Of a stretch of 64,000 nt of DNA, positions 22,641 through 43,570 are shown in pieces. The DNA lies in NCBI GenBank assembly GCA_035510735.1, contig DATKGN010000007.1:105-64104 (forward strand), in the 5' to 3' direction. Origin of the DNA: Patescibacteria group bacterium. GTDB taxonomy: Bacteria > Patescibacteriota > Microgenomatia > UBA10105 > UBA927. How positions within the stretch are numbered: position 1 is the first letter of the stretch; each line of letters starts with the position of its first letter. The notes under the pieces were generated by a model. The model saw nothing but the letters and a program-made list of their open reading frames with translations, searched no databases and was not told where the DNA came from. The translations under genes and the position numbers were made by a program.

Positions 22641-22672
22641 ATATGAATATCATACAATTTTTGTATGTATTG

Positions 22673-26499: not shown

Positions 26500-26543
26500 A
26501 ATCTTTATCCTGCAATTGACAGCGACAAATCGTTCGTATTATC

Positions 26544-27281
26544 ATGCCGCGCATGGCAGTACCGGCAGAAACCACCATCCGTCCTTGGCTCGACTTGCAA
26601 TACAGTTCTGTTGAGATTCCATCCAATCTGGAAAATGCAGGGTTGTATATTGAGTTCCCCACAAATCCAGACACCGGTAAAATCGCACTCACCGGCATAA
26701 AACTACCACTTGGACAAAAAGCTTCACTTGTCTATCCATCATTTACCGTTCGCGACAGTCCCGTACATATTATTCTAGAAAGTATGCCGGCAAGAGGAGC
26801 GTTCCCAGAACTCGGTAAGCGAGCGTATCCGGAGCAAGGGAAAATAACGTATGTGTATAGCGGGGTAAAAGGTGGGCATTTTCTGATATCACGTTCCAGC
26901 GAAAACCCGTGGAAGATTGGCATATTGAGAGAAACGGTAGCCAACGCATACTGGGATAGCAAGGACCGTTCGCTCCACATCAATCCAACTTTGGCAACAC
27001 TCCCAGTTGCGATCCTCGTGCACCCCAGGCGAACGTGTACATTTTTTGTCGATTATCAAGGACAATCGCGCCCGCTTGACGTAGAGGATGTATCGCAAGG
27101 GAAAAGCGAGGTTGGCCGGCCCAATCCAAGAGCGTTTGTGGAATTCCACACGGGCAAGCTAGCACGATTGAATCCGTTTCGCCCCACGACATCATGGATG
27201 GTTGGCGGCAAAACGTTATGTACGTTTTCATTTCTCACGCCGCCCCTCGGGCTCACGAAGCAGGAAGCTCCACAATCTTAA
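26544..27281 (+). CDS. hypothetical protein (245 aa), tandem paralog 2
   Basis: See 25765..26499. Confidence 0.5.
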   Translation: MPRMAVPAETTIRPWLDLQYSSVEIPSNLENAGLYIEFPTNPDTGKIALTGIKLPLGQKASLVYPSFTVRDSPVHIILESMPARGAFPELGKRAYPEQGKITYVYSGVKGGHFLISRSSENPWKIGILRETVANAYWDSKDRSLHINPTLATLPVAILVHPRRTCTFFVDYQGQSRPLDVEDVSQGKSEVGRPNPRAFVEFHTGKLARLNPFRPTTSWMVGGKTLCTFSFLTPPLGLTKQEAPQS

Positions 27282-27961
27282 GTTGATGTAACGGGGTTTA
27301 TCGCTTCGGTCCCAGACACAAATGTAGCACCGGGAGAAAGAATCAGTGTGCCCTCCAGAGCATGAAGATGAGGATTCACTGGCGGTCCGACACGGACTTC
27401 TGTATAGTGAAAAAGTTCCCGTCCGCCTACATCGACTCCAGGGAGCAATGAAGAGCTGTGTTCATACGCTTCAACCAGAACCGAGGCGTCTTTTCCGTTC
27501 CACTGATGGTTAATAACCATCCATGAGTCGTGCGCTTTGTAAAAACGGGAAATAACCGCCGCTGCACCAGGATCACTTACTGCAATTTCCTGATGATCGT
27601 CGCGGTTCAAAAGCACCATGCTGATACTTGCCGGCACCTCCACTTTGGATGCTATCTGCAGCGCGTCTACAAGCGTTCCAACGTCAGTAGGGATCGTCCA
27701 ATCAAGCCCGACGTAGGAAGAGGTTTCCGGAATCCACATTTTCATCCCTGCCGGAGTTTTGATATGATTCCAATCGCCCTTGTGGTTCCTCGTCTGAAGA
27801 TCCAGCAATTCCAAATTGCCGATCTCAACCGGCTTAAAAACCGCTTTCCCTCTGTTTTCAGAACTTAGTGCTGCTTCAACGTGAAATGCCATAGATTTAT
27901 CCGCCAATAACCTCCACAACACCAGCGCCACCGAATCCTGGTTCTTTGGGCTGACAATCAT
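27278..27961 (-). CDS. hypothetical protein (227 aa)
   Basis: ORF; overlaps upstream ORF by 65 nt out of frame. Confidence 0.4.
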   Translation of the reverse strand: MIVSPKNQDSVALVLWRLLADKSMAFHVEAALSSENRGKAVFKPVEIGNLELLDLQTRNHKGDWNHIKTPAGMKMWIPETSSYVGLDWTIPTDVGTLVDALQIASKVEVPASISMVLLNRDDHQEIAVSDPGAAAVISRFYKAHDSWMVINHQWNGKDASVLVEAYEHSSSLLPGVDVGGRELFHYTEVRVGPPVNPHLHALEGTLILSPGATFVSGTEAINPVTST

Positions 27962-28526
27962 GAAATACTACAATAAGCTTTGGTGGCGGAACGTCAGATG
28001 AGGGTGTTCCGAGCATAAAATATTTCTTGTCATTATACGGTTCAACAGTCGTCACAGAAAGCCCTATCGCCTTTCTCATCGTATTTTCCCTAATCTGCAT
28101 AACATGACCGTCAACATCAAATCCAAGGGTTGTATTCCACGGGGGTAAACCTTTTGCACCATACACTAAATCTATAGAGCGATGTAACCCGGGGAACGGT
28201 ATATCCGCTCGTTTAGCAACAAGAAGTCTGGATTGTTTTAGTTTTGGTTGCACAACAACGATCGGCGCCTCAGGCATAACGACTAACCACTTCATATCCA
28301 ACTCTTCATGACGAAGATCATGCCAACCATCACCTAATATTGTTGTTAATTCACCGATCCCCCTGATAAACCCATTCATTTCTCGTTGTTGTTCAGAATT
28401 CAGCTCTTGAGGATACGATTGTCCAGCTCTCACTTCTATATTCGGACTATATGTGAGCGCTAACCCTAATTTAACCGCTTGAGTAAATATATCAGGTTGA
28501 ACTTCTTTTACTGCTGTTGTTGACAT
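27897..28526 (-). CDS. hypothetical protein (209 aa)
   Basis: ORF; 65-nt out-of-frame overlap with downstream ORF. Confidence 0.4.
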   Translation of the reverse strand: MSTTAVKEVQPDIFTQAVKLGLALTYSPNIEVRAGQSYPQELNSEQQREMNGFIRGIGELTTILGDGWHDLRHEELDMKWLVVMPEAPIVVVQPKLKQSRLLVAKRADIPFPGLHRSIDLVYGAKGLPPWNTTLGFDVDGHVMQIRENTMRKAIGLSVTTVEPYNDKKYFMLGTPSSDVPPPKLIVVFHDCQPKEPGFGGAGVVEVIGG

Positions 28527-28600
28527 AACAAATCCCTTAGTGGACAGCTAGAGTATGCTGCGAATAATATATCGACGAACCGATTGTGTCAACAAATGAA

Positions 28601-29830
28601 TTATCGGGAGCCATTCACAAACGAAACCAGATATGGATGAAATTGCCGCGCGATCGCAAATATTTCACCGAGCACCTGCTCGCGGGTGTACCCCTTCTCA
28701 ACCAATTTTCGCATGTCCCACTTTTCTACTATAAAATTATAACCCACCGACTCGGTATCCCCTTTCTCAATGTGTGCGATGCGAAATAGTAACCCTATTG
28801 AATTTTCAGGATCAAGCGCTTCGCCAAAGAACGTAATCGAATGCATATTTGATATGCAATAATCACCAAATTTCTCAATCATCTCGCCTATCGATTCGTC
28901 ATTATCGCCAAAAACAGACATCATCTCTGTGGGGAATACTACCATGCCTTCAATCCTGCCTCCCTTTTCATTCTCTTCGTCATCAGTCGACTTCATATCT
29001 ATCTTGTAAACCATGCCATCTATCGTGACCTGTCCGCCAGTTTCATATTCAATCGGCTCCGTCCCTTCGACCGGCTCTAGCCACTCGCCCCGAACTTCAT
29101 GAGCACCCAATGCACTAATCGCGCTCACCGGCCATGCGGGGGGTTTCGTCTCAATGCGTTCTTCCCGCTTTTTGATAAGCTTCGGTATCTCATTTTGGAT
29201 AAAGGTAGGCGTGTATTCTTTGAGCGTTCGTACCAAATTCCCCAAACGCTCGGCTATTTGAGCGCCGTACTGCTCGCGTGTCATGCCGTCATGCGTATTT
29301 GGATCGTGGTAATGACCCACGGGGGTATCTTCAACTTCTATATCAAGCGTGTCATCGTCCTCCGCCTCGCTACTTATACACGCAGCTCCGGAATCGGTCG
29401 CCAACCCGTTCTCATGCATGCGCCAATTAAGACTTGTGTGTCCCTCTTCGCGAAGCCTATCAACCCAGTCGGTCCATGCGTCATCAAGCTCATCTGTAAA
29501 TGACAACAGTTCTTCATCAAACGGCGCGATCGGTACGTGCACGGTGGCACAGAGGAATTCCCACACATCGTCTTCATCCTGACTGCCGGTATGAGACCAC
29601 GATGCGTCAAACTTCACCCAGTCGCCCGTGCTATCTTCCCAACCCGGCGCCCAAAGAAAACCCTGAAGTACATAGTTTTTTGCCTCTTCCGGATCACGGA
29701 ATAGATGCGGTTCAAATCCGGGTTCGGCGCACACAAACCGCGACCGTATAAACCCCTGCAAGAATTCCGGGGCTTTCGTCAGGGATAATTCGGGATATGG
29801 TTTACCATCAAACGTTTCAAGACCACCCAT
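28601..29830 (-). CDS. hypothetical acidic protein (409 aa)
   Basis: Long ORF, Asp/Glu-rich; no recognisable motif. Confidence 0.45.
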   Translation of the reverse strand: MGGLETFDGKPYPELSLTKAPEFLQGFIRSRFVCAEPGFEPHLFRDPEEAKNYVLQGFLWAPGWEDSTGDWVKFDASWSHTGSQDEDDVWEFLCATVHVPIAPFDEELLSFTDELDDAWTDWVDRLREEGHTSLNWRMHENGLATDSGAACISSEAEDDDTLDIEVEDTPVGHYHDPNTHDGMTREQYGAQIAERLGNLVRTLKEYTPTFIQNEIPKLIKKREERIETKPPAWPVSAISALGAHEVRGEWLEPVEGTEPIEYETGGQVTIDGMVYKIDMKSTDDEENEKGGRIEGMVVFPTEMMSVFGDNDESIGEMIEKFGDYCISNMHSITFFGEALDPENSIGLLFRIAHIEKGDTESVGYNFIVEKWDMRKLVEKGYTREQVLGEIFAIARQFHPYLVSFVNGSR

Positions 29831-29986
29831 AGGCCGCTACTATAGCCTAAAACACCCAGAAGTGCAAATTAAAACCCTCTCCGAAATGACCGGCGACTTC
29901 GAACTAACGTGTATTCAAACGTACATATAGCGGACACATTCACATACTATTGATTTATTATCTTTATAGGATATATAATACGTGGT

Positions 29987-30805
29987 ATGAAATCGCAGGC
30001 AGAAGAAGCACGCAGGTCGCCACTTGGGCCTTCAGAAGCATTTTTACCACCGCAATTATTTGATCCGTCCTTATGGATACCGGTGAAAAAACTCGGTGAT
30101 AATGTGCCCATCGAAATATATGTCACAGGGCTTATCCTTTCTGATACATCACTTTTTTGGCAAAAATCCGCAGATTACGGCACCGAAACGATTTTTATCG
30201 TCGATAAATCACAAATCACACGAATAGATTGTAAACCTATGGTCCCTTTTCTGGATGCCCCCGATTGGGTGCAGGAAGCCAACAAGACGCTCCCAAAAGA
30301 CGACGAGATGATGTTCCAGGAACTAACCTCTGCCATGATTGATCCTCATAAGACATTCGCGCAACTATCTCACCAATCGGTTGTCTATACACCCGACGGA
30401 GCGAAGAATGATATTCTTGTGGCCCACACAGTGATATTGCGCCTGAATCATCCGAAAATCCCATTCATCCCGCCGCTTATAGAAATTTCCGACCCCGTAG
30501 GCAATGCGTTTGTCGATATCGGGGAACTTCAGGAGCGGCGCACACTCCTCGTCTCAACGGCGTTTTCAATAGAAACCCGCGTAGAAAGTGACGGTAAAAT
30601 GCCCGATATGAATATAAGCACGAAACTCATTTCGGAACACGAACAGCGACATACCAAAGTTCAGGAAGGTGCTGATCTTCAAAGTATTGGACTGCAACTC
30701 TTTGGCGTACGGGTCCAAAATGATAAAACATCCTTTAATGCCACTGAGGCTCAACTTCTGGAAAAAACCACCTTGCGCCTCAGGCAGCCAACGGAAAACT
30801 TCTGA
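29987..30805 (+). CDS. hypothetical protein (272 aa)
   Basis: ORF; no recognisable motif. Confidence 0.45.
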   Translation: MKSQAEEARRSPLGPSEAFLPPQLFDPSLWIPVKKLGDNVPIEIYVTGLILSDTSLFWQKSADYGTETIFIVDKSQITRIDCKPMVPFLDAPDWVQEANKTLPKDDEMMFQELTSAMIDPHKTFAQLSHQSVVYTPDGAKNDILVAHTVILRLNHPKIPFIPPLIEISDPVGNAFVDIGELQERRTLLVSTAFSIETRVESDGKMPDMNISTKLISEHEQRHTKVQEGADLQSIGLQLFGVRVQNDKTSFNATEAQLLEKTTLRLRQPTENF

Positions 30806-30841
30806 CGCGGCGGCAGACTCTCGGATAAAGTAAATGGGGCA

Positions 30842-32155
30842 CTACTCCTGAGGCGGTTTATGAAGCAATCGCTTTGCTGCGTTCAGGCGGGCTTTTTCTT
30901 TCAAGTTCTGATCGCGCCATATTTCATCCTGCTTTTGACTCAGGATGTTACGTAATGCGCTTTCGTTAAACCCCTCGGTGTCAATCTTACTCACGAGATC
31001 GACAAATTCTTCTTCCATCGCCAATTCCCGTATAGCACGTCGCCCATCCATCCACGCGCCGTGCTCCCATCGATTCTTCCAAAGCGATTGCAGGTAATCG
31101 TACTTTGCCCCTTTTTGATCCTCCTCGGGCACCAACGTGTCAATAAGTTTATAAGCTATTTTACTTATTAACGGATATTCGTCCTGTAACAACGGGAGGA
31201 TCTGGACGACGATTTTCTGCCCGTCCAGCTGAGCCAGATCTTTTAACGTCACCAACACCTCAAGATCATCGGATACAGGTTGCTCAAAGTCGGGTCTCCA
31301 TCCTGCTGTTTTCCACGCTAACAACTCTTGATTGCACGCACGGGCCGCATCCTGTTCCGTAAACGCCCGCCATGACACCTCTCTGGGGTCAATAACCAGC
31401 GCCAATCTTTCGATAAATTCACCCAGACTAGACGTAGTATGTTGATACCTCTCTTCATGCCACTCATGTAACTGGTTAACAGCCGATTGTGCTGCTAGCT
31501 TCACTCCCTCAGGCGGCACACTCCACTCGGTCCGAATAAGCTGAAATACCCGTCCTACCACCTCTTGTGCATGTTCTATAGAGGATCTACCAAAACTTTT
31601 CCCGAACATTATATAGTCATGGATAACATATTCGGCTAACACTTGTTGATCCGCCTCATCTGCTCCAAGATACTTTGCCAAAAAAAGTTCTTTAAGCGTT
31701 ATCGGGTCATCCAAACGAGGAGGTCCGAACGCGTTGTTTTCATCAACATGCTTTCTCAAACCCGCCCACTTATTGGTATACGCTTCTTTTACCTCCGGAA
31801 ATAATCGAATGACGTCATCAACCATATCGTAACGCTTAGGATGATGAAAATTAATTAACTCATCTACATCGTGAACAAGGTAAAATGAATCGGATAAAAA
31901 ATCCATAAGAACGGACGCTTCTTTCGAGAATAACTCCCCGACTAATTCATCTGTTTTATCTGTAGGGAGGGTGAAGCTGTGTACCCCGTCTGCGAGTTTT
32001 GTGTAGAGATCCAGTCTCTTATTATGATCTAGCTCATTCGTGAGATGCAGAGTGAGGTCTTTTAAATGATCAAGAAGTATACTCTGTGCTTCGGGAATCG
32101 AAAGATCTTTTGCTTGCTCTACTCCTGCTACCATACGTTCTTTATTTTTGGGCAA
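30842..32155 (-). CDS. hypothetical protein (437 aa)
   Basis: Long ORF; helical composition; no convincing family A blocks. Confidence 0.45.
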   Translation of the reverse strand: MPKNKERMVAGVEQAKDLSIPEAQSILLDHLKDLTLHLTNELDHNKRLDLYTKLADGVHSFTLPTDKTDELVGELFSKEASVLMDFLSDSFYLVHDVDELINFHHPKRYDMVDDVIRLFPEVKEAYTNKWAGLRKHVDENNAFGPPRLDDPITLKELFLAKYLGADEADQQVLAEYVIHDYIMFGKSFGRSSIEHAQEVVGRVFQLIRTEWSVPPEGVKLAAQSAVNQLHEWHEERYQHTTSSLGEFIERLALVIDPREVSWRAFTEQDAARACNQELLAWKTAGWRPDFEQPVSDDLEVLVTLKDLAQLDGQKIVVQILPLLQDEYPLISKIAYKLIDTLVPEEDQKGAKYDYLQSLWKNRWEHGAWMDGRRAIRELAMEEEFVDLVSKIDTEGFNESALRNILSQKQDEIWRDQNLKEKARLNAAKRLLHKPPQE

Positions 32156-32212
32156 ATTGTGAATTCACGGAGATTATAGGACCGGTAGATAGGTCTGTCA
32201 AATAGAGCCGAT

Positions 32213-32899
32213 TCAATATGATGATATGGGCGCTTCCGATAGCGGAGTTCTTCGGAGAAAATCGAGTCTCACAGGCTCATAACCCCAACCAGCCTTGTCT
32301 CCTGAATTGATGGTAAATACTCTCATCGTCCCGAAATATGGTGATCCGGAATCCATACGCAATGATGGCCGGAGAAAAAATGAGAGCCGGGATACATTCT
32401 CAATTTCGTGAGACGTAGGCCACTGCCCCCAACAGGCCCGTGGAGCGTTATGCAAATAGTCTTCTATAGAATCCAACCCCCCGCTCACAATCTTAAATGT
32501 CTCAATATCGCGGGTTATCGTAAAATTTGAAGGCGATCCCATATACCATACGTTACTATCCTTTGTCCGGACCAAAAAATAGCTATGGACAGGTTCAATG
32601 AACCGATGTTGCGGGCTCTCTTTCCATGAAGTCAAAAGCACAAACCGGTCAAATAGTCGTCCTGCCTGTTTATCTTTTGCAATTGACCATAACGCCAAGG
32701 CCGATGCATCGTGGCATTTGAATTTCGTCCAAGCAACCAGATCGAACAAAGATTTGTCAAACGATACAACTTTTTCTTCACCCTCCCCTTCTCCTGCCCA
32801 CGCTAACAATCCGGGCTCAATTTGCCGCCAGAAAGAATACCGCATGGAATGGGCGACAACGTCTCTTGACATTTGTACGCCGTCATCAAGTTCTTGCAT
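32213..32899 (-). CDS. hypothetical protein (228 aa)
   Basis: ORF. Confidence 0.45.
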   Translation of the reverse strand: MQELDDGVQMSRDVVAHSMRYSFWRQIEPGLLAWAGEGEGEEKVVSFDKSLFDLVAWTKFKCHDASALALWSIAKDKQAGRLFDRFVLLTSWKESPQHRFIEPVHSYFLVRTKDSNVWYMGSPSNFTITRDIETFKIVSGGLDSIEDYLHNAPRACWGQWPTSHEIENVSRLSFFLRPSLRMDSGSPYFGTMRVFTINSGDKAGWGYEPVRLDFLRRTPLSEAPISSY

Positions 32900-33049
32900 A
32901 TAGTGATATTGATTATATCAAAAAGTATCAAATAAGTTTACCAATTCCCGCCCCAGATGCGCTATATATGCACACTATAGACCATATATTAATATATCAT
33001 ATAGTGCTTTTAGTATATATTAGATAATCAGAAGATCTTAGGCTGAAAG

Positions 33050-34132
33050 TTATAACGAACGGTCGGGGTGTTGAGATAATGAAAATCCACCGAACTTCGA
33101 CAACATCGTGCTATCAAATAAATCGGATAACGCTCCCGCCAGAAGCGGACCGGACGTCCCATTCACGAGCGTCTCCCATAACGCGTTATCAGCAACACCT
33201 TTTGGCTTAACGAGTGCTCCTTTCGTGCCATTCTTTTTATCAAACCATAATCCATCGCTTTCTTTACCCACTCTCTTTTCCAGTTTCAGCTCATAGTCGC
33301 CCTCAAACATACCCGTTATGGGTGAAAGATCGGAAATTGCCTGCACGGCGTAGTGCCACGCACCTTTCCCATCATTCGTATGACTCAATATGAGGTGTGC
33401 GACATTCGTTTCATACTCGTTTCCCGCCATGTGCTGACTCACTGAAATAGTACAGTCGCCTAATAGGCTTAAATAATTCGTTGACGGAGTCAACAGAGCA
33501 TCGATATACCCTTCACGAGTTATTCCGTCATGCACGATCCTGTATCTCCGGTCTTCCCGAACAGAAGCAGGCACGCTTGACTCAGGTTTAAATTGAAAAA
33601 CCAAATTCCTGCCGGCTTCTTTGATTTGTATTGATTTGAGATATTTACCCTCCTGTTCTCCTGAGGTTTTAGGAAAAGTAAACATGATAAGCGCTTGTTC
33701 GGAAAGGCGGGTGCTCTCTCCGTTCACCGGTGAAACAACAACTTGAAATGATGATTGCTCAGGGTCAATCTCTGACTCATCACGCGTGAATATACCGTCT
33801 GATCCTAGCTCAACCCTCCCGAACCCCGCATACTGCACCTCATATTCGCCTCCCGCGATAACGACGGGAATACGTGCATCTATTCCTTTTCCTTCAGGGG
33901 GAAGGGTGTCAATAAACGTGGTTACATCAGACGTGAGACCATTCGTTAGAATCGATTCAGCGAGGGCCGGAACCGGAGACAACTTCTGCATCTCGGGAAC
34001 CGGGTCAAATAGTTCATCAAACAATTGTGGCACCAGCGCGAGCGCCCGATCACGGGCTTCCCCTATTTCTCCCGCGGCAAGCTGACTCTTTGTGCTATGA
34101 AATATATCCACAGCCTGATCAGCATTCCCCAT
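33050..34132 (-). CDS. hypothetical protein (360 aa)
   Basis: ORF. Confidence 0.45.
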   Translation of the reverse strand: MGNADQAVDIFHSTKSQLAAGEIGEARDRALALVPQLFDELFDPVPEMQKLSPVPALAESILTNGLTSDVTTFIDTLPPEGKGIDARIPVVIAGGEYEVQYAGFGRVELGSDGIFTRDESEIDPEQSSFQVVVSPVNGESTRLSEQALIMFTFPKTSGEQEGKYLKSIQIKEAGRNLVFQFKPESSVPASVREDRRYRIVHDGITREGYIDALLTPSTNYLSLLGDCTISVSQHMAGNEYETNVAHLILSHTNDGKGAWHYAVQAISDLSPITGMFEGDYELKLEKRVGKESDGLWFDKKNGTKGALVKPKGVADNALWETLVNGTSGPLLAGALSDLFDSTMLSKFGGFSLSQHPDRSL

Positions 34133-34287
34133 ATTGCTATCAGTATATCAGTGAATTTCAACTTGACACGTATCTTTTCGTCAACGTATCCCAACCTGCT
34201 TACGATACATATTGGTTGCATCCTCATACCGCATCCGTGCTGCATTGCATAGATATACCCCATAAGGATACGCTGTAACCGGCTTCT

Positions 34288-34584
34288 ATGCCCACATTCC
34301 TTGAGCGAAGCGCTGTCCGAAGTTTCTTTTTTTCCTTCGGTGAACTGGAGGTCCTCGATAATTTAAAAATTTCCAAAGAACAGAGAGAACAAATAGTCGA
34401 CGACCAATTAGCCGCCTCCGACGCCCGGTTGGCAAAAGCCGGAGCCTCCGGGTTTAAACTCCAGGGAGTCATCGCCGATCATGAATCTATAGCAAGGAAA
34501 AAAGGAGAACCGGATTGGGATGAAGTGAAGCGGGATGCAATCCGCGAAATGGCACACAAAATGGCTGCAGAAACTGAGCTATAA
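34288..34584 (+). CDS. small hypothetical protein (98 aa or shorter)
   Basis: ORF in the gap between two minus-strand genes; charged, helical composition. Confidence 0.3.
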   Translation: MPTFLERSAVRSFFFSFGELEVLDNLKISKEQREQIVDDQLAASDARLAKAGASGFKLQGVIADHESIARKKGEPDWDEVKRDAIREMAHKMAAETEL

Positions 34585-34632
34585 TCTGCTCCCCTTTTTA
34601 GGACTTCAAAGAATGCAGATTTGGGATCTCAA

Positions 34633-36036
34633 TTACGTTAGAAGCGGCTTGTTCCCCAACTCAAATGTGTCAACTAGATCCTGAAGATTTACCGCATATG
34701 TTTTTCCTGTATGTATTTCAATGCCATAATATATCCCATACCGCCAGATAGTTTCTGGAGTTAGTTCGCAGAACCGTATGCCTTTCCCATTCCGTGTGTT
34801 CACAATCGCTATCTCTGTCCGTGCCTCTTTGTAGTCTGAAAGAGTAAGATCCTTTTTTTCAAACGGAGAAAGCCAGCCGCCGCGATGATGTCTGAATTTT
34901 ACATGCAAAGGTACGCCATTGAATGAACAGTCCCCCTCTGAAGGGATATATTGTTGACGAAAATGTTCGTATATATATTTCAGAGGCAGGGCCAAATCCT
35001 GGTGCGTCAACCCAAGCTCATGCACCCGGTCATTCATATCCAGCATATGTGAAATCAGTGATTCTCCGGGCGCAAGCATCGCATCACGCGTTTTAATTAA
35101 CGGATATTCGCTCGGGACCTGCAGTTGTGTCGTTAATGACTGTATATCATGTCCGTTTATGTGCGTAATTCCAAGTATTGTCGCTTCATCGTTAACGCCT
35201 CCGATGTTGAACCCATTATCAACGTCCCCCGTCGAATCAAATCTGACACCAAGCTGTTCGGGCGTAGGTTCAGCGATAAACTCAGATGAATTTTCCACAA
35301 CCATACCACCCCCATGAGGTGATATTGCGAAACGATACGATGCATTTTGAACGATGAGCGTCGGGACAGTTCTTGTATCCTCAGGAGCGTAAAAATGACG
35401 CGGAGCTACACCTTTACCAATGATTTGTAAATCCGGAGTTATTTTATCCCGCACGTACTGTCCTAACGGCTTAAACACTCTCATAAGCCGGTCACCTTCA
35501 AATACGAATAATAACGTAATCGATGACGATTCATCATCTGTTTGCTCGAGATACGTACAGGAATATAAATTTTCTGACATTCTTGTAAAATTAGGGTGAA
35601 GTTCAATTTGTTTCTTCACCATTGGTGTATTTAAATCAAATAACGTATATTGGCGTTTGTCATCCTTCACATGAACCTGACCATTTTCGAAAGTAACATC
35701 AGGTACATTCAAGGATCCACTACTGCCGGATCCTCCTGCTAGTTTTCGTTCGTAGTTAAAAAATTTGGAATGGAATTGGATTGAAGAGACAATCATAACT
35801 TCGTTCCAGGTTGCAAATGTCTCATCGCCGACTATGCCAATTGCAAATGCATTGTGTATATCATCAGTGTCATCAAAAAAATCCGTAAAAATATTGGCTG
35901 TAGTGCCATCCGGATTATAGAGAATAGCGAATCCCGGCGTAATCCAAACGTTTGTGTCGTCAATTTGGCGGAATTCCGATGCCTGAATTCCATGTTCATG
36001 AGCAGGACCTCTTTGTAGCAGATTACCTTCGTACAT
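34633..36036 (-). CDS. hypothetical protein (467 aa)
   Basis: ORF. Confidence 0.5.
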   Translation of the reverse strand: MYEGNLLQRGPAHEHGIQASEFRQIDDTNVWITPGFAILYNPDGTTANIFTDFFDDTDDIHNAFAIGIVGDETFATWNEVMIVSSIQFHSKFFNYERKLAGGSGSSGSLNVPDVTFENGQVHVKDDKRQYTLFDLNTPMVKKQIELHPNFTRMSENLYSCTYLEQTDDESSSITLLFVFEGDRLMRVFKPLGQYVRDKITPDLQIIGKGVAPRHFYAPEDTRTVPTLIVQNASYRFAISPHGGGMVVENSSEFIAEPTPEQLGVRFDSTGDVDNGFNIGGVNDEATILGITHINGHDIQSLTTQLQVPSEYPLIKTRDAMLAPGESLISHMLDMNDRVHELGLTHQDLALPLKYIYEHFRQQYIPSEGDCSFNGVPLHVKFRHHRGGWLSPFEKKDLTLSDYKEARTEIAIVNTRNGKGIRFCELTPETIWRYGIYYGIEIHTGKTYAVNLQDLVDTFELGNKPLLT

Positions 36037-36197
36037 AAGAGAGAATTATACTATAGGGCAATATCATATGCAAATATACGTAATTTCCTGGGGAACCATT
36101 TTATTGACCTGGCCCGTCATAATGGTCTATACTCTCCTATCATATATCTTAAGAACGACCTATTCCATGCGGGTAGCATGGATACATAAACAACACT

Positions 36198-36809
36198 ATG
36201 ACCGGAAATGAGACTCATGAAAATCAACAACTCGTCGAGGTGAAGAGGTACTTAAATGAGATGGCACTACGAGAAGTTCAGGCGCTATCCGGCCTTATCG
36301 ACCAATACGTCGCGCCACATGTTGCCATAGAGCATCCGAGCGTTCTCATTGTAGGGCAGGGATTTCGATACACAGAAACAATTGCAATTGATGACCGTCT
36401 GACGCCCGGCCATATCACCTCTGCCGATAACGGTTTTTCTGAAATAGGATTGCATTACTCACTACAGAATGCGATTGCAGGCGGCGTCACCCGCGACGCG
36501 AACATCCTTTCACTGACAACACACGTTTCTTCTGATTTCCAGGATTTGGATGAGACGTATGACATTGTCTTCGCGTTTAGTTTGGCGCTAAGCCTCCAAA
36601 ACCCGGAGTGCGTTGAGCAACTCCTGGGTAAAAGTCGCGGACTCTCTGTCATCACTGCCCATAAGCCAAGCGAGGATCTGAGGGGGTTTCTACTGGAAGA
36701 ATATGTGCATATAGATCAATTACTTGAACAACGGGGTGTATCTTTTATCACACGCAAAGAATCCCTCTCTCTCCCAACTAAAGACGGACATATCTGGGTG
36801 ATGAAATAA
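36198..36809 (+). CDS. hypothetical protein (203 aa)
   Basis: ORF. Confidence 0.45.
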   Translation: MTGNETHENQQLVEVKRYLNEMALREVQALSGLIDQYVAPHVAIEHPSVLIVGQGFRYTETIAIDDRLTPGHITSADNGFSEIGLHYSLQNAIAGGVTRDANILSLTTHVSSDFQDLDETYDIVFAFSLALSLQNPECVEQLLGKSRGLSVITAHKPSEDLRGFLLEEYVHIDQLLEQRGVSFITRKESLSLPTKDGHIWVMK

Positions 36810-36849
36810 CAAACAGAATCAAACTATATCGAGGCGTGTAGATTTTGGC

Positions 36850-38031
36850 TTATTTATCGTCTTCCCGCTGAGGAATGACGTAGAGCCGTTCAATAATTTG
36901 ATGACCGGTGTACACATTTGCTTGACCCCACCACTGTGCAGACCGTATCATTTTCTTAACATCTGCCTTCTCTAAAGGGGCGAAGCAATCGGAACGTCGG
37001 ACATCCATAATCTCAAACAGGCGCTCGCCGCGCGGATTGAGCTCAATGATAAAGCCCCGGTTTACACGCGCGCCGAAGAGAATATCGTGAGCATCCCACA
37101 ACCCCATTGGATTAATTTCTGCGGCATCCGGCACATACATCGTTGTGTTATCAGATACTTGCTTTCCCTTCGTTTCGTCCGTCGATACGAAATTCCGGAA
37201 ACCGATATAGTTGCGGATGGCATTCCCACGGGATTCAAGCTCTCTTCCTCTCGTCGATCCATTCACTTCCGGAACAAAATCATCGTTGGCAGTAAACCGT
37301 ATTGATTGTATCTCATCAGGAAGAAACTGACTCACATATGTTCCGCGACTGACTGTCCCTATGAGGAGTTCAATTGCGGGAGCAATTGTTTCTCCAACCG
37401 CCATCACGGTAAAATTTGACCTGCGTCTAATCCGATTGCTCTCATACGGCAACGGGAAAATCATCCGGCTGGGTAAGACTTCCCCATATTGGTCTTCATA
37501 CATCTGTCGAAGATAGATAAGCTGTTCTCTTGATTCCGTAAAATAATGTGCAAGTGGTCTCTCCAAGTCAATATCGCCTGCAAGTTCAACTTCCACGCCC
37601 TTAGCGAGATGTGGAAACAGGAAAAGCGCCCGATACAAGAGGTCGTTCATCGCGTCGACAGCTTGTACATTTTCCTGGTGAGACCTATTCGCCTGGAATG
37701 TATGCAGTAAATCATCAAGCCGCCGGTTCAGGCCGCCCACCCCCTCCCGTTCGATAACGGTTAAATATTTGACGTCTTTGACTAATCGGGTAATATAGGG
37801 ATTTTGAAATTGCTCGCGCTCTGTCTCAAACCTGCTCACGAGATTATTTACAGAACCAACCGAGGCAATCGTTGTTTCATTCCCGTAGTAAGACAAACTA
37901 CTTATGAATCCTTTTTCATATTCGCTGGTCGGTCCAAGAGAGTCTACCGGGCGCGACACAAGACTGGTAATCCGGTTTTGAATAAGCTGGATGTGAGGCG
38001 GTGAATCGTATTGATGTGTCCCTTCTTTCAT
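36850..38031 (-). CDS. hypothetical protein (393 aa)
   Basis: ORF. Confidence 0.5.
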   Translation of the reverse strand: MKEGTHQYDSPPHIQLIQNRITSLVSRPVDSLGPTSEYEKGFISSLSYYGNETTIASVGSVNNLVSRFETEREQFQNPYITRLVKDVKYLTVIEREGVGGLNRRLDDLLHTFQANRSHQENVQAVDAMNDLLYRALFLFPHLAKGVEVELAGDIDLERPLAHYFTESREQLIYLRQMYEDQYGEVLPSRMIFPLPYESNRIRRRSNFTVMAVGETIAPAIELLIGTVSRGTYVSQFLPDEIQSIRFTANDDFVPEVNGSTRGRELESRGNAIRNYIGFRNFVSTDETKGKQVSDNTTMYVPDAAEINPMGLWDAHDILFGARVNRGFIIELNPRGERLFEIMDVRRSDCFAPLEKADVKKMIRSAQWWGQANVYTGHQIIERLYVIPQREDDK

Positions 38032-38162
38032 GGCGTGATTATACTATAAGACCCAAAAATACCATACTTTTGCACAGAAGCGAATGATAACAATGGTCAA
38101 ACACACGCAGGTAATCCGATAGAATTTTGGTCGCTTTTCCAAAAAGCATCTGATTTGAATTT

Positions 38163-38235
38163 TACTCCCGTTTTAACACTTCAAAAATAGCTGACTTGGG
38201 GAATTTCTACCCGGCCGATCAATTTCCCTGCAGAG
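38163..38235. repeat. degenerate direct copy (copy C) of the lepA 3' end, putative displaced att site
   Basis: 'ctcccgttttaacacttcaaaaatagctgacttggggaatttctacccggccgatcaatttcc' vs lepA 3' end 'ctctctttaacacttcaaaaaacgctgactgagggatttcgacccggcctattaatttca'. Confidence 0.6.
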
Positions 38236-38312
38236 CGGGATTTCGTCCTTCGACAGACTCAGGACTCAACATTCTCGCCTCACCCAACCATTTCCCTTAT
38301 TAACTATATATA

Positions 38313-39524
38313 TTGATATCTAACTATACTTTACTATATAATTCCGACATGGCTGCTATTGAATTTGCGGATGTAAAACCAAAAGATATTGATTTAACCG
38401 GCATCCCGACAGGATGGAATATCCTTTCTGAGGCCGAACATTCGCTGGCTTGGGATTTTTTATCCGGACGAAATACTGAAACGCTTCGGAGCATCATCAC
38501 AATGGAAGGAAGAAATACGTTTATTCTGCGGCCCGGCTCCCCTGATCCGATATACACCCATATTCAGCTTTCCGGAGGATTTTATAAGGAGCTAGAAATA
38601 TCAAGAAATGGGATGGCCATATCCAAAAATACTGTCCATCTATTATCTGCTGATAATTTCGTCTTGGGACGGGAACCCATGTTTAGAACCAATGCAATAA
38701 CAGAGGACGGCCAAATAACGACGACCCAGCCTGATTATGTCCCCACCGGAGCATATACACAAATGCAGGCTATAAAAAAAGCTATTGATACCCTTTCTAT
38801 CACAGCCAGTCTGGAAAAACTGAAAGCTCTCGATTTTCCTGATAAAAAAATGTTTATGGTTCCGAGGATTGTCGGCGTCTATCAATTTCCGGAAGTTACT
38901 GACCCGACAGGTGAGCCGGTATACGGAATTGCTATGCTCACATCTTCCCCTGAAAACAGGCTGAGCCAACGTATAAATAGTTTTTTCAACAGGTATGGAA
39001 AACACTATGAAGCGTCCATAAACAGACGGATACAGAGGAATTTCGGCTACCAAACGGTCGCACTGGGGGCAGCCATACGGACGCTTCATGATTCCTTTGA
39101 CCTGTATCACCGTCAGATAACCAGCGGCAACTGTGAAATTGTAACGTTGCCGGATAACCAGTTCACGCCCTTCTTTCATGATTGGAGCACGACGATGAGG
39201 CTCCCTAAAAACCTTCGTCCTAATAGGATGGCGCGCGCAATTGACCTCATAATACCATGGGCATCCGTTTCCATTTTGATGGACCATATGCGCGAAACCG
39301 GCGCAACAAACAACGACGTTGCGCAATTTATGACCACGTCGTTTCTCGCGAATCTTACGGCAGGGTATGTGCATTTGCTGCCACGAAGATCAAACGAGTT
39401 TGAGAAAGAATTATTTTCTCAATTCACTCTTGCCGAAACGGACAGTAGCACCGTTGAGCGTTTAGCAAATTTTATCACCTCTTTTGATGCTACTATCGGA
39501 GTAGAAACAGAAGAAGAAATATAA
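38313..39524 (+). CDS. hypothetical protein (about 390-403 aa), sole cargo gene of the distal lepA-associated module
   Basis: ORF bounded by lepA 3'-end copies C and B; probable ATG at 38349 (MAAIEFADVK); weak, unverified kinase-fold-like features (glycine-rich 'QLSGGFYKE', 'YHRQITSGNCEI', 'FHDWS'). Confidence 0.5.
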   Translation: MISNYTLLYNSDMAAIEFADVKPKDIDLTGIPTGWNILSEAEHSLAWDFLSGRNTETLRSIITMEGRNTFILRPGSPDPIYTHIQLSGGFYKELEISRNGMAISKNTVHLLSADNFVLGREPMFRTNAITEDGQITTTQPDYVPTGAYTQMQAIKKAIDTLSITASLEKLKALDFPDKKMFMVPRIVGVYQFPEVTDPTGEPVYGIAMLTSSPENRLSQRINSFFNRYGKHYEASINRRIQRNFGYQTVALGAAIRTLHDSFDLYHRQITSGNCEIVTLPDNQFTPFFHDWSTTMRLPKNLRPNRMARAIDLIIPWASVSILMDHMRETGATNNDVAQFMTTSFLANLTAGYVHLLPRRSNEFEKELFSQFTLAETDSSTVERLANFITSFDATIGVETEEEI

Positions 39525-39536
39525 CTCTTCCAGTTC

Positions 39537-39600
39537 AATTATTCTCTCTTTAACACTTCAAAAAACGCCGACTGGGGAATTTCGACGAGACCTTAGAATT
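39537..39600. repeat. direct copy (copy B) of the lepA 3' end, putative att site between two cargo modules
   Basis: 'caattattctctctttaacacttcaaaaaacgc' is 33/33 identical to the lepA terminus at 41417..41449; then diverges (cgactggggaatttcgacgagaccttagaattca). Confidence 0.65.
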
Positions 39601-40127
39601 CAAGATTGTAATAGTTGTAGGATCTTTCCCATTATCGCCAACTGCTTACTCGCTTTTTCGATCACGCTCTTTGAAAACAGTCCCTTATAAGACAAATAGT
39701 CCATTGCTTCGCCCTCATCTAAATATTTTTGATGAAATTCTCGTTTACATTGTGGTGTGGACCAAGTCGCATGTGATCGTCGAGGTTCTCGAATATCTAG
39801 AAACAAGCCTTCGACACATGGCTCTGGGACGAAAATAACCCACCTATTGCCAATTAATAGATCTCTTCGTGGTGACGATAATTTAGTATCACCATCCAAT
39901 AGCAATAATTTTCGTGAGTAAGGAATCTCTCCATGCGCTTGCATTGCTTTTTTTGCAGCACCATCAGCTCCGCCTCCATGAGCATTATCGTATCTCACTA
40001 ACTTCCCACATCCTCGCGGACAATATAAACCACCTAAATAATGCAAAAAAGCTTCGTCTGTGGGACCCTCACCGTATAATAGTATCGATTGAAGCTGCAG
40101 ACGATGCAATTGTGATTTCTTACGCAT
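39600..40127 (-). CDS. small TOPRIM-like protein (RloB-like / DUF4276-like), partner of the AAA ATPase
   Basis: N-terminal 'ILLYGEGPTDEAFLHYLGGLY' (hhh-EG-x-TE motif of RloB/DUF4276/OLD-TOPRIM) and downstream 'LLLLDGDTK' acidic motif; starts 3 nt after the ATPase stop on the same strand. Confidence 0.55.
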   Translation of the reverse strand: MRKKSQLHRLQLQSILLYGEGPTDEAFLHYLGGLYCPRGCGKLVRYDNAHGGGADGAAKKAMQAHGEIPYSRKLLLLDGDTKLSSPRRDLLIGNRWVIFVPEPCVEGLFLDIREPRRSHATWSTPQCKREFHQKYLDEGEAMDYLSYKGLFSKSVIEKASKQLAIMGKILQLLQS

Positions 40128-40130
40128 ATC

Positions 40131-41342
40131 TTATACATTCGGCCGTCCTCCATATATTCCAGCCAAATATTTTTTTAAATAGTTACTATCGCTTCTGATA
40201 TCATCAACGTCATCGAGTCGCCAAATGTTCGTTTGACCCTTTTGATTTTTCTCAGTCAAAAAGACCTGGTACATATCCAGACGGTCGAGCATTTGGATAT
40301 TATGCGTCGACGCTATAAGTTGAGCGTTCTTTGGATTCCATTTTGGCGAAGCGAATAACTCAACAATTTTCGGCATCATCATGGGATGAAGCCCTTCTTC
40401 AATATCATCATAAACGACAACACCTCCATCTTTGAGTGCAGGAAGAACGTCTCTTAAGAGTAAATAGAGATTTTGTGTACCATGAGATTCGTTGTAAAGG
40501 GTCAACGGATAACGACTGTTCTTTCCTATTTCATGAATACCAAATGCAAAATAATCATCTATCATCTTGTCTGAACGATCTTTACGCTGTCGTTTTTCAA
40601 TCTTCATTTCCGACAATCCAAGATCAAATTCTGAAATTAGTCGATCGGCCAATAGTTTTTCCTCACTATGAGAATAAAAATACTTAACGGCCTCATCAAT
40701 GTCTTCCCAACGATTATTTAATGTCTTCCCCATCATCCCAACATTAGTCACAGATTTATCCCAATATTTAGCAATTGATAGACACTTAGGATTGTTTAAC
40801 GTGACCCCAATTGACACTACGGAAGCGTTTTTTCGGCTGAGCGCTTGAACGATGCTTTCGCTTTTCCCAAAGAGCTTCGTGTTTATAACGTAATTGTTAG
40901 AGTTTTTATTCCATTTTTTTCTAAAAATATATTTAATATATTTCCCTTCATTTTTTTCTTTCAGAGACTCCGCAACGACATGCTCTTCAGTAAAAATTAA
41001 AGAATAATAGTATATCGACGTACCATCTAAAAACTCAACCTCAATGTGGGTTGGTTTATTTACAAATTTTGGGGAAAATACAAAAGAGTCAAACGGTATT
41101 TTGCTATCTGGTTTCATTTGCGAGGAGGCGGGAATGAAAAAATTCAAGAATGATAATATCTTGAGAGTGTTAGTTTTCCCCGACGCATTCGGACCAAAAA
41201 TGAAATTAATTTTAGAAATACGATCATTAAAAATCGTTTTCACATAATCAGAAGTCGAAGGTGCGTTCCCATTAACATAAAACGATATATCTTGCTTCTC
41301 CCCAAGGGAATAAAAATTATTTATAACCAAACGACGAATCAT
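40131..41342 (-). CDS. ABC-type AAA ATPase (AAA_15/AAA_21 family), AbiLi/OLD-ATPase-like
   Basis: N-terminal 'IRRLVINNFYSL'; Walker A 'FGPNASGKTNTL'; signature-like 'ESHGTQNLYLLLRDVL'; Walker B 'GGVVVYDDIEEGLHP'; H-loop 'IASTHNIQML'; gene is markedly AT-richer than its neighbours. Confidence 0.75.
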   Translation of the reverse strand: MIRRLVINNFYSLGEKQDISFYVNGNAPSTSDYVKTIFNDRISKINFIFGPNASGKTNTLKILSFLNFFIPASSQMKPDSKIPFDSFVFSPKFVNKPTHIEVEFLDGTSIYYYSLIFTEEHVVAESLKEKNEGKYIKYIFRKKWNKNSNNYVINTKLFGKSESIVQALSRKNASVVSIGVTLNNPKCLSIAKYWDKSVTNVGMMGKTLNNRWEDIDEAVKYFYSHSEEKLLADRLISEFDLGLSEMKIEKRQRKDRSDKMIDDYFAFGIHEIGKNSRYPLTLYNESHGTQNLYLLLRDVLPALKDGGVVVYDDIEEGLHPMMMPKIVELFASPKWNPKNAQLIASTHNIQMLDRLDMYQVFLTEKNQKGQTNIWRLDDVDDIRSDSNYLKKYLAGIYGGRPNV

Positions 41343-41419
41343 ACCGTGAAGTATAATCGTTTATTACAAATTTGTCAATATTATACGAATTTTTGTATAA
41401 AATCGATAAATTTGAACAA

Positions 41420-43570
41420 TTATTCTCTCTTTAACACTTCAAAAAACGCTGACTGAGGGATTTCGACCCGGCCTATTAATTTCATCCGGGCTTTTCCTTT
41501 GGCCTGTTTCTTTAATAATTTATCCTTACGTGTCCTATCGCCGCCGTAGAGCTTCTGGATAACGTCTTTGCGGAATGCTTTCACATCGGCACGTGCTACA
41601 ATCTGGCCCCCAATGGCGCCCTGGATCGGAATCTGGAACTGCTGGCGCGGGATAACCTGGGCCAACCGCTCGACGATGGCTATGCTCCGATGGTGCGCCT
41701 GATCGCGGACGGCGAGAAATGAAAGTGCGTCGACTTTTTCTTTGTTTACCAAAATATCAATTTTTACCACATCGACCGCCTGAAATTCAAAAAATTCATA
41801 ATCCAGGGATGCATAACCCTCCGAAATACTCTTTAAACGGTCAAAAAAATCAATAATCATATCGGAGAGCGGGAGCAAATACGTCATCTCGACCATAATG
41901 CGCGAATCAAATTCATTAGGCTCGTCTTCGACCTCACCCGCTTTGTCTATTGTTGTATTGTTGTATTGTTGTATTGTTACTTCTCCATGTAAGTACTTCA
42001 TATCGATGTATTCGCCGCGCTTCTCCTGCGATAGCTGCATGATCGCGCCGACGTAGCGCTTGGGGGTAAAAATTTTCACATCCATGATGGGCTCTTTCAC
42101 GCCGTCGATGTAGGTTGGGTCGGGAAATTCGGTTGCGGATTGAATGGCGACCTCGACGCCTTGATCGGGCGCTGAGGTTGCTCGTCCAATTTCTCGGGCA
42201 GTTCGATCCCCGCTTTGCGGGGCCGCTTCGCCGGACGTCTCGAAATTGTCCAAGCGCCCCGCGCCCCGTACAAGTTCTGGGTGTTCATTTATAACAGACG
42301 ATACGGTCAATCCTAATTTAGAAAGCGATACGCCGCGCGCGAGCATGAGATGATATTCAACCGACGGCGCCGTCGCAATCATGTCAAGGTCAAACTCACG
42401 CGAAAGCCGTTCCTGCACAATTTCGGCGTGGAGTAAACCGAGGAATCCGCAGTGGAAACCATTGCCCAAGGCAAGGGATGAGATCGGCCGGAAGGTGAAA
42501 GCCGAGTCGCTTAACCGCAATTTTTCCATACACTCGCGTGCATGGGTAAATTCGTCGGCGTTTAATGGGAAGAGGCTCAAAAAAACCATGGGTTTGGGCT
42601 CCCTATATCCCGGTAGCGCCTCTTTTGCCTGCTTAGGCTGTATATGAGCATTCACGGTACTTCCGGCCGTTATGGTGTCACCTACCTTCGCTAAACGTAC
42701 ATCCTTAAGGCCTGTGGCAATGTACCCCACTTCACCAGTCGAAATCCCAGCAGATTTTACCATTTGGGGCATAAAAAAACCTGCCTCAATTGCCTGAATT
42801 TGAGCATTTGATGCGAAAAACTTAATACTCGTATGTGGATCGTACTGCATAGTACCATCAACTACCCGAACAAACACTACTACTCCTTTATGCGGGTCGT
42901 ACTGTGAGGAAAATATTAGTGCCCGCAGTGGTTTATCGGCATCACCGAACGGCGGCGGGATCCGATCAATAATTGCCTCAAGAACCGCTGGAACATTTTG
43001 CCCGGTCTTAGCGGAAATCTCTATCATCTCCTCATCTCTAAACCCTAATGCTCTAAGCTCTGCGCGCGTTTCGACAATGCGCGCGTGCGGCATATCAATT
43101 TTATTAATCAAGGGAATTACGGTGAGGTTGTGGAGGCGCGCCTGATGGAGGTTCGCGAGGGTCTGCGCCTGGACGCCCTGGGTAGCGTCTACCACGAGAA
43201 GCGCGCCTTCACACGCCGCAAGCGACCGGGAAACCTCATAACCGAAATCAACATGGCCGGGAGTGTCGATGAGATTTAATATAAACTCCTCCTTGCTGTC
43301 ATTCCGGGCTTGACCCGGAATCCACACCGCATTCTCATGGATCCCGGCTCGGGGGCCGGGATGACAAAAAAAATGCATCCTCACCGGCGCAAGCTTTATC
43401 GTAATCCCCCGCTCACGCTCAATGGGATTGCTGTCAAGAAGCTGCGCCTGCATATCGCGCATCGCAACCGTCCCGGTAAGCTCCAGAAGCCTATCGGCGA
43501 GGGTACTTTTCCCATGATCGATATGGGCTATGATCGCAAAATTTCTAATATGATCTTGTTTCATATGCAA
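41420..43570 (-). CDS. lepA: elongation factor 4 (LepA)
   Basis: G1 '[18 protein letters not shown]', '[10 protein letters not shown]', '[16 protein letters not shown]', 'LINKID'; LepA-specific C-terminus '[34 protein letters not shown]'; the track start is a TTG, the likely ATG is 3 nt in (MKQDHIRNF). Confidence 0.95.
   Translation of the reverse strand: [716 protein letters not shown]
41421..41490. repeat. lepA 3'-terminal segment (copy A) that is repeated at 39537 and 38163; putative attL core
   Basis: Reverse complement encodes the lepA C-terminus '...[17 protein letters not shown]'. Confidence 0.65.
41948..41979. repeat. in-frame octamer tandem repeat (tattgttg)x4 inside lepA, encoding 'QQYNNTTI'
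   Basis: Seen directly; lies in a lineage-specific insertion relative to canonical LepA (between 'YHGxxV' and 'LDFFDRLKS'). Confidence 0.6.
43297..43367. mobile_element. ~70-nt palindromic element inserted in-frame in lepA (RPE-like), termini TGTCAT...ATGACA
   Basis: 'tgtcattccgggcttgacccggaatcc...ggatcccggctcgggggccgggatgaca': two internal hairpins plus terminal inverted repeats. It encodes '[23 protein letters not shown]' between ITIK and [12 protein letters not shown]. Removing it restores canonical LepA spacing. Confidence 0.6.

Follow-up and report, generated by a model that had tools for sequence, protein, structure and literature searches.

SelO (YdiU), a protein of kinase-like fold in which the catalytic motif reads HGV..N and the DFG or DYG motif is retained (PMC12599244, Table 1), uses ATP to AMPylate proteins. 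By the usual definition, a pseudokinase is recognized by loss of the beta3 Lys, the HRD Asp or the DFG Asp (PMC12599244); the same survey of bacterial pseudokinases lists one Leptospira CP1 protein whose motif 'Hnqigpss' contains H-N-Q but which has lost both the Asn and the DFG Asp (WLG), and Patescibacteria are not mentioned in it. The present analysis concerns a single gene, hereafter the target, in a stretch of 64,000 nucleotides (nt) from a Patescibacteria group bacterium (contig DATKGN010000007.1 of assembly GCA_035510735.1; the whole stretch is referred to as the window). Its product belongs to a previously unannotated family with a protein-kinase-like fold, and the gene lies as a module of its own between copies of the 3' end of lepA. 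The closest mechanistic precedent for this locus is SelO, and the closest genetic precedent is the tandem build-up of integrase-less elements at the 3' end of a gene.

The target and its relatives

The gene in question is the following.
38349..39524, + strand: target gene, 391 amino acids (aa) from the ATG at 38349, with its stop at 39524

The full open reading frame (ORF) spans 38313-39524 on the + strand in the ORF listing of the window. The 391-aa product is a 100% match to the NCBI hypothetical protein VMR81_04825 from a Patescibacteria metagenome-assembled genome (MAG); it is a soluble protein of 44 kDa and pI 5.6, and no transmembrane or hydrophobic segment was found in it. Comparison with the orthologue in the sister genome L010/L001 (related loci are given as L numbers, family proteins as P numbers) showed 86% aa identity, with 36, 18 and 85 differences at codon positions 1, 2 and 3, respectively, a dN/dS of 0.17 and a dS of 0.40. 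Based on this skew in codon position together with the dN/dS, the target is a genuine coding gene under purifying selection. A nested antisense ORF of 243 aa (38643-39374) had a dN/dS of 1.13 and a stop codon in the orthologue, and was set aside as spurious.

None of the Pfam, NCBIfam, PHROGs and PADLOC models matched the target, and PADLOC-DB 2.0 at E up to 0.1 returned no family for it or for its homologues P0003 and P0004. A word-indexed homology search of 5.8 billion proteins recovered only the target itself and an 87% relative when the target was the query, and one distant member in addition, with nothing else, when the single protein and the family profile were both used. When 1.84 billion cluster representatives were scanned in full with HMMER, 47 distant relatives came up at E up to 1e-3, 11 of these at E up to 1e-10. 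The first-pass annotation had regarded the protein as an ORFan of no recognizable family; the latter holds with respect to Pfam, NCBIfam, PHROGs and PADLOC but not with respect to the fold, which is kinase-like according to AlphaFold2, Foldseek and the family profile, and the ORFan status is undone by the 47 remote relatives.

Nearly all relatives are 350-430 aa in length, and their clusters hold 1-4 members each, indicating that the family is rare; the few that carry an organism name are all Patescibacteria (Roizmanbacteria, Saccharimonadales and unclassified Patescibacteria). A related-locus search with the narrow alignment A4 found only L010 and one Roizmanbacteria locus, the family hidden Markov model found no paralogue of the target in the window, and no relatives were found in IMG/VR, the INPHARED phages or the PLSDB plasmids. 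The target and its relatives were combined into an alignment of 48 sequences (A2), on which the residue counts given below are based. P0045 and one other distant member of the family carry a C-terminal SEC-C zinc-binding motif (Pfam E 8.8e-10).

Fold and active site of the family

The AlphaFold2 model of the target, obtained with A2 as input, has a predicted local distance difference test (pLDDT) of 91 and a predicted TM-score (pTM) of 0.91. In the model, a Gly-containing hairpin, a long alphaC-like helix, two strands, and alphaD- and alphaE-like helices come before the catalytic loop; after the loop there are two short strands, then D278, then an alphaF-like helix with R296-A-x-D299. This predicted order of elements fits the bilobal kinase topology. 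Of the Foldseek matches listed, almost all of those in the PDB and all named ones among the viral models (BFVD) are kinases or kinase-like enzymes, with a best E of ~4e-5 and a probability of up to 1.0; the matches include LAMMER kinase, maltose kinase, DCLK1, GSK3, SelO and giant-virus Ser/Thr kinases. When the profile of the 48-member A2 alignment was compared with all PDB sequences, only protein kinases were found, the best being a Leishmania MAP kinase (E 4e-5), then PknA and PDK1, and the alignments with kinases all cover "LHD..GltHnQltlGN...ylaDWsT"; a profile of the 12 closest members gave no matches to PDB sequences, the 48-member profile alone reaching kinases. We thus consider it highly probable, on the strength of the model and these matches, that the target protein belongs to the protein-kinase-like fold, within which its family is highly divergent. 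The weak kinase-like motifs that had been picked out by eye proved genuine, in that 'LSGG' holds the near-invariant G76, placed between two strands, and 'YHRQITSGN' corresponds to the catalytic loop.

This catalytic loop reads H254-R-Q256-x4-N261 and is followed by D278-W as the DFG equivalent. An hhalign comparison with a PKA sequence aligned the catalytic loop only (probability 7.5%, E 0.005) and served residue mapping only; it equates Q256 with D166 (the catalytic base), N261 with N171 and D278 with D184 of the DFG motif. Among the 48 sequences, G134, H247, H254 (the HRD histidine), N261 and Y340 are invariant, and R55, G76, Y136, K144, P172, R204, Q256, D278, T281, R296 and D299 are nearly so. 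The metal-binding Asn at N261 is present in 48/48 members and the DFG-type Asp at D278 in 47/48, while the position of the catalytic base is occupied by Gln in 47 members and by Ser in the remaining one; the HRD-type catalytic Asp is absent from the family, with Q256 sitting at the D166 position. No conserved Lys was seen in the strands after the Gly turn, where K93 of the target is variable (no residue-level superposition underlies this comparison); K144 in the alphaC-like helix is kept in 47/48 members. There seems to be no activation loop, as only ~10 residues separate D278 from the alphaF-like helix. By the usual definition the family would thus count as pseudokinases, yet its metal/phosphate site appears to have been kept by selection. 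We know of no active kinase family or O-phosphotransferase with a conserved Gln at the position of the catalytic base.

The likeness to SelO lies in a kinase-like fold that has lost the catalytic-base Asp while keeping the metal-binding Asn and the DFG-type Asp, and Pseudomonas SelO (6eac) gave the highest TM-score among the PDB matches. The target family nevertheless bears no sequence-family relation to SelO (no Pfam match), which is marked by a flipped ATP and AMP transfer, has Gln where SelO has Val, and shows no apparent conserved beta3 Lys, which SelO keeps (WHLK/LHLK). With eukaryote-like Ser/Thr protein kinases such as PknA and the MAP kinases, LHD..GlxHxQxxxGN...DW of the target family aligns with LHs..ivHRDlKpxN...DFG, and an alphaF-like Asp is found in both; in contrast to these kinases, the family has Gln for the HRD Asp, shows no apparent VAIK Lys, lacks the activation loop and the APE motif, has an expanded N-lobe sheet and falls below every Pfam kinase threshold, the target not reaching the Pkinase gathering score and one of the 48 members touching Pkinase at E 0.04. 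The bacterial pseudokinases surveyed (PMC12599244) share a kinase fold without the HRD Asp, but the target family, unlike the CP1 protein mentioned above, retains the Asn and the DFG Asp. By sequence, the target falls outside SelO, HipA, Pfam Pkinase and every PADLOC family.

Could the target nonetheless be a conventional kinase whose base is supplied by another residue, with a protein or a small molecule (an antibiotic or a metabolite, for instance) as its substrate? The short segment between D278 and the alphaF-like helix resembles that of small-molecule and atypical kinases, maltose kinase is among the top Foldseek matches, and single-gene kinase cargo is typical of resistance genes. However, a near-invariant Gln at the catalytic-base position speaks against such an activity, as do the APH, ChoK, Kdo and ABC1 Pfam models, which match at most 2 of the 48 members and then at E 0.04 or weaker, and we regard a conventional kinase as quite improbable.

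The lepA hotspot and its cassettes

The features surrounding the target are as follows.
38162..38252, - strand: lepA 3'-end copy C, bounding the target cassette on its distal side (E 3e-5)
38313..38342, + strand: promoter-like TTGATA-18-TATAAT, 11/12 consensus matches, the -10 hexamer ending 6 nt before the target ATG
39536..39586/39600, - strand: lepA 3'-end copy B, separating the target from the AbiL pair
39600..40127, - strand: AbiLii-like gene, 175 aa (PADLOC AbiLii E 2.5e-7)
40131..41342, - strand: AbiLi-like AAA ATPase, 403 aa (PADLOC AbiLi E 2.4e-64; Pfam AAA_21 E 1.6e-36)
41350..41378, - strand: promoter-like TTGACA-17-TATACT, serving the AbiL pair, the -10 hexamer ending 7 nt before the AbiLi ATG
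41420..43570, - strand: lepA (EF4), 716 aa (Pfam GTP_EFTU, EFG_C and LepA_C), its last ~17-30 codons repeated
34587..34630, - strand: lepA 3'-end copy D, weaker, encoding PKSAFFEVLKR
20568..41419, no strand: variable island of 20.9 kb between lepA and a convergent membrane-protein gene
19848..20567, + strand: membrane protein with HELSH motif, at the far island edge (tblastn 54% identity, E 1e-56)

Copy B is 94% identical over 51 nt to the true lepA end at 41417-41467 (E 4e-17) and covers the last 17 lepA codons, the stop and 3 nt further. The alignment score of copy C was reached by 0/500 shuffles and that of copy D by 1/500, and all three copies share the strand of lepA. The target is the sole credible gene in the interval from C to B, with 143 nt upstream and 11 nt downstream of it. 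This is what the first-pass annotation had seen, together with the AbiL-like pair in the module next to it and a -10 box ahead of the target, and in each of these respects it was borne out. The AbiLi- and AbiLii-like genes are adjacent and co-oriented, so that a candidate AbiL system is confirmed at the level of gene content and layout.

Within the scanned region, 11/12 promoter matches occur in two places only, ahead of the target and ahead of the AbiL pair, while promoter-like sites as a class are not enriched (9 observed vs. 9.8 expected). The TATAAT-N6-ATG spacing is also present ahead of the homologues in L001/L010 and L006, and the L008 homologue is preceded by TATACT-N7-ATG. A TTG start at 38313 was considered for the target, but it is disfavored by the annotated product and by the conserved promoter geometry, and the ATG at 38349 is preferred. 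As no Shine-Dalgarno sequence is visible ahead of the target and the AbiL genes, the target transcript is probably leaderless. Leaderless expression from near-consensus sigma-70-type promoters may be usual for the target and AbiL cassettes.

Close relatives of the target are found in the same hotspot in three other genomes. In L010/L001, a block that is 87% identical corresponds to 38298-39587 of the window and comprises the promoter, the target and copy B. On its lepA side, two unrelated genes with a weak lepA copy between them stand in place of the AbiL pair, one of 228 aa and one of 185 aa (the latter methyltransferase-like by eye, with no confident family match); on its other side, the 393-aa gene of the window is absent, and copy C is found in decayed form, with a hairpin inserted in it. 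Beyond lepA, the window and L010/L001 are syntenic. The L010 contig (CAYLQG010000055.1) was deposited under an 'uncultured Gammaproteobacteria' MAG and is probably mis-binned, given this synteny and its 75-87% DNA identity to the Patescibacteria window. In L006, the homologue P0003 (40% identity) is followed by a frameshifted lepA fragment, BrnT/BrnA and a lepA end at the contig edge; no distal lepA copy was found upstream of the homologue. In L008, the homologue P0004 lies tail-to-tail with lepA, 2 nt apart, and the distal lepA copy is marginal, with 17/500 shuffles reaching its score. LepA itself differs in length, with 716 aa in the window, 597 aa in L008 and 700 aa in L010, and by eye the extra residues are segments inserted within the conserved GTPase and EF-G-like domains.

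To sample the hotspot more broadly, one metagenome scan was made for the LepA C-terminus AFFEVLKRE*, yielding 24 related lepA loci, 10 of which have two or three same-strand lepA-end copies. Enclosed by lepA and its distal copy are, among other cargo, an MNT-type nucleotidyltransferase paired with a HEPN/NTase_sub_bind protein, a YafQ/ParE-type toxin preceded by a small gene, BrnT/BrnA, and a weak AbiEii-like protein accompanied by a helix-turn-helix protein. Large ORFs in other lepA islands appear by eye to be sigma-factor-, glycosyltransferase- and Fic-like, with no obvious recombinase. A conserved HELSH membrane protein of 220-250 aa is encoded convergently to lepA in 17 other loci, at a spacing of 47 nt to 6.6 kb; the corresponding gap of 20.9 kb in the window is the largest island seen.

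These loci bear directly on whether the target is cargo or a core neighbor of lepA, the latter being the case that the first-pass annotation had named as contrary to its proposal of cargo. As no member of the kinase-fold family was found in the 24 sampled loci, the target is in all likelihood accessory cargo of the lepA hotspot. A core syntenic neighbor, around which insertions alone had generated the lepA-end copies, would accord with homologues lying beside or near lepA in four genomes, always convergent, but this is very improbable: the conserved convergent gene in the 17 other loci is the HELSH membrane protein, which is also present in the window and in L006, and beyond the target, on the side away from lepA, there is a further lepA copy in both the window and L010. 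In addition, whereas the target and LepA of L010 are both 86% identical to the window proteins, P0004 of L008 is ~35% identical overall compared with 79% for LepA, a discrepancy not easily explained if one orthologue had simply been inherited vertically.

The copies themselves are of more than one kind. Those that we call recent (window copy B, copy b of L010, and those of L006, L018, L022 and L028) start at LepA residue -17 or -18, and this constant boundary, although suggestive only, would fit a defined attachment site. Old-type distal copies carry a 30-nt insertion that is missing from real lepA ends (alignment A5); they are found at 38184-38252 of the window, L039:498-578, L019:1680-1757, L035:898-1005 and L020:2556-2657. 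The insertion consists of two small palindromes and reads '...SRSAGKLIGRVEIPQ' instead of 'KGKARMKLIGRVEIPQ'. Since it is common to five genomes, the old-type copies seem to go back to one older duplication, the cargo between them and lepA having been exchanged since. Minimal hotspot sites consist of the lepA stop, a long hairpin of ~85 nt and a second lepA 3'-end copy (hairpins at L026:2213-2300, L040:3602-3690, L035:815-900 and L039:392-500). The hairpins have RNAfold z-scores of -6.6, -3.7 and -3.4, their inner sequence varies between loci while the shape is kept, and an Rfam search of six hotspot loci gave no match for them; such a hairpin could be a terminator, a recombination site or a cassette remnant. 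The lepA-end pattern was not found in IMG/VR, and a literature search brought up nothing specific on attachment sites in lepA or on hotspots of Patescibacteria. L002 and L005, two independent assemblies of this population, are both broken inside copy B, which shows that lepA-end repeats fragment metagenome assemblies and that islands of this type are probably under-represented in MAGs.

A similar duplication was seen once away from lepA. In L012, the last 65 nt of the P0010 gene are repeated at 97% just upstream of the same gene (9803-9867 and 11161-11225); this self-repeat resembles the lepA-end duplication but uses the 3' end of the kinase-fold gene itself, and the 90%-identity cluster of P0010 includes two 48-aa members that may correspond to the repeated fragment. 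Apart from L012, no duplicated 3' ends of other neighboring genes were found around the distant homologues.

Among described genetic systems, the locus compares best with tandem accretion of the cis-mobilizable element (CIME) type, in which direct repeats of a gene 3' end flank tandem modules that contain no recombinase, with the insertion-target gene left intact; tandem genomic islands at the ends of tRNA or protein genes are of this kind as well. Such direct repeats lie on both sides of the target in the window (copies C and B) and likewise in L001/L010, and the neighbors differ between genomes, as seen from the 38298-39587 block in L010 and from the cargo variation across the 24 loci. The lepA modules, putatively mobile, differ in being very small (1-2 genes, 1.3-1.9 kb) and in occurring in Patescibacteria, and no cognate integrase or donor element was found for them. 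There is also a likeness to integrons, as an array of one- and two-gene cassettes, each with one copy of a recombination site, on a fixed chromosomal platform; however, no IntI-type integrase was found nearby, the lepA cassettes bring promoters of their own and occur in either orientation, and the repeated site is a gene 3' end rather than an attC hairpin.

As to the rest of the island, its GC content is 0.446 compared with 0.477 outside; the target has a GC of 0.446 and looks ameliorated, while the AbiL genes range from 0.36 to 0.415. No Pfam matches were found among the scanned island ORFs except AbiL. Most of the island belongs to ~21 kb of consecutive ORFs (18222-39524; about 98-514 aa) without a Pfam match, several of which also lack a PADLOC, PHROG or NCBIfam match. 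Elsewhere in the window, 47083-49536 holds two sigma-70 (RpoD-like) paralogues in tandem, 402 and 397 aa long, then two class-I methyltransferase-like genes, and 56807-63836 holds a 1366-aa protein with an M23 peptidase domain beside a 975-aa protein composed largely of collagen triple-helix repeats.

Possible roles of the target

Somewhat more probable than its contrary, and the best overall explanation in our view, is a kinase-fold protein with a non-canonical site, encoded in a one-gene lepA-hotspot cassette, that binds ATP-Mg and has an accessory, likely conflict-related role. The target stands here as a one-gene cassette with its own promoter (about 38298-39587), and the variable island around it was most likely built by repeated insertion at the lepA 3' end, with each event leaving a copy of the last ~17 lepA codons. 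Because the metal/phosphate site is kept, as in SelO, the protein would bind ATP-Mg, and because the general base is missing, it would not act as a classical O-phosphotransferase. By analogy with the AMPylation carried out by SelO, it may function as a non-canonical nucleotide-dependent transferase, or else as a nucleoside triphosphate (NTP)-gated switch. We surmise that its role is accessory and most likely conflict-related, for example that of a growth-arresting or anti-invader effector that stays silent until triggered. Of these components, non-canonical chemistry, as opposed to ordinary kinase activity or a dead scaffold, is evenly poised in our estimation, and a role in conflict or defense is more tentative, falling short of even.

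A number of observations weigh against this explanation. With regard to fold and chemistry, Foldseek gave low TM-scores (0.25-0.37), the N-lobe, which has extra strands, could not be matched residue by residue, and a phosphate-binding role of K144 and R55 is putative. With regard to mobility, the target kept its place in both the window and L010 and diverged to the same degree as LepA, and the slot beside it changed its cargo; such retention is untypical of fast-cycling defense cargo. Distant members of the family (25-34% identity) lie among housekeeping genes such as those for KsgA, peptidase M20, threonyl-tRNA synthetase, a Clp-like ATPase and TopA, with no partner gene in common. With regard to a conflict role, no PADLOC, PHROG or toxin family was matched, and a partner gene for the target is absent, there being no space for one in the cassette. 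Finally, none of the window ORFs that were compared with Pfam matched a recombinase; insertion may have gone by either of two candidate routes, site-specific recombination in trans or Campbell-type insertion of a circle via ~50 nt of homology.

Some of these same observations would be expected of an inert pseudokinase, that is, a scaffold, sensor or regulator of a lineage-specific process that resides in the island without a conflict function. The missing catalytic Asp, replaced by Gln in 47/48 members, and the lack of a visible conserved beta3 Lys are in line with it, as are an aa identity of 86% at a dN/dS of 0.17, equal to that of LepA while neighboring cargo changed, a GC content that is genome-like and unlike that of the AbiL pair, and the ordinary chromosomal contexts of distant relatives. 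On the other hand, the retention of the metal ligands N261 and D278 along with several basic residues goes beyond what is usual for a pure scaffold, and the rare and patchy occurrence of the family (47 clusters in 1.84 billion; 0/24 lepA loci) argues against a core role. We judge an inert pseudokinase to be unlikely.

Slightly less unlikely, though still doubtful, is a dedicated single-gene anti-phage, abortive-infection or toxin system as the primary function. The hotspot is shared with AbiL, BrnT/BrnA, HEPN/MNT, YafQ-type and AbiE-like cargo, the target has its own strong promoter and a patchy distribution, and P0023 adjoins an IS1595 transposase and a Panacea-type toxin-antitoxin gene. All of this is positional, however, whereas the target, P0003 and P0004 are without a PADLOC match, relatives are missing from the phage, plasmid and IMG/VR collections, no antitoxin partner exists and the gene was stably retained between sister genomes; the target cassette does not show the type II toxin-antitoxin layout of two adjacent, co-oriented small genes. 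A resemblance to HipA, as a kinase-fold protein in toxin-antitoxin-rich surroundings, is offset by the lack of a HipA Pfam match and of a HipB-like partner gene, and by a different catalytic loop. The defensive function suggested by the first-pass annotation was thus overstated, having been drawn from position, and a recurrence of homologues near defense or mobile genes, which it had proposed to check, holds for L006 (BrnT/BrnA) and P0023 but not for the other distant members, which are found in ordinary chromosomal surroundings.

We further entertain, as a speculative and rather improbable extension of the non-canonical reading, a new class of kinase-fold enzymes in which the invariant Gln would support a chemistry other than phosphorylation, such as nucleotidyl transfer, making the protein a one-protein growth-arrest or immunity module of Patescibacteria that is spread by a small-cassette platform for which the lepA 3' end would serve as attachment site and next to which no recombinase was found.

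Patescibacteria have often been described as poor in classical defense and toxin-antitoxin systems, and the majority of their genes carry no annotation. The family described here, with the signature H-x-Q-x4-N...D-W and no apparent beta3 Lys, is a testable new kinase-fold family; it extends the list of "pseudokinases" that keep the metal site and that, like SelO, may perform other chemistry. In the sampled related loci, the lepA 3' end is a recurrent hotspot for small toxin-antitoxin, Abi and unknown cassettes, and it allows unknown cargo to be gathered systematically for function discovery in an uncultured phylum. The series that runs from "empty" sites of ~50-120 nt, through minimal sites of copy plus hairpin, up to 20.9 kb of cargo makes the mechanism of insertion tractable via metagenomic reads.

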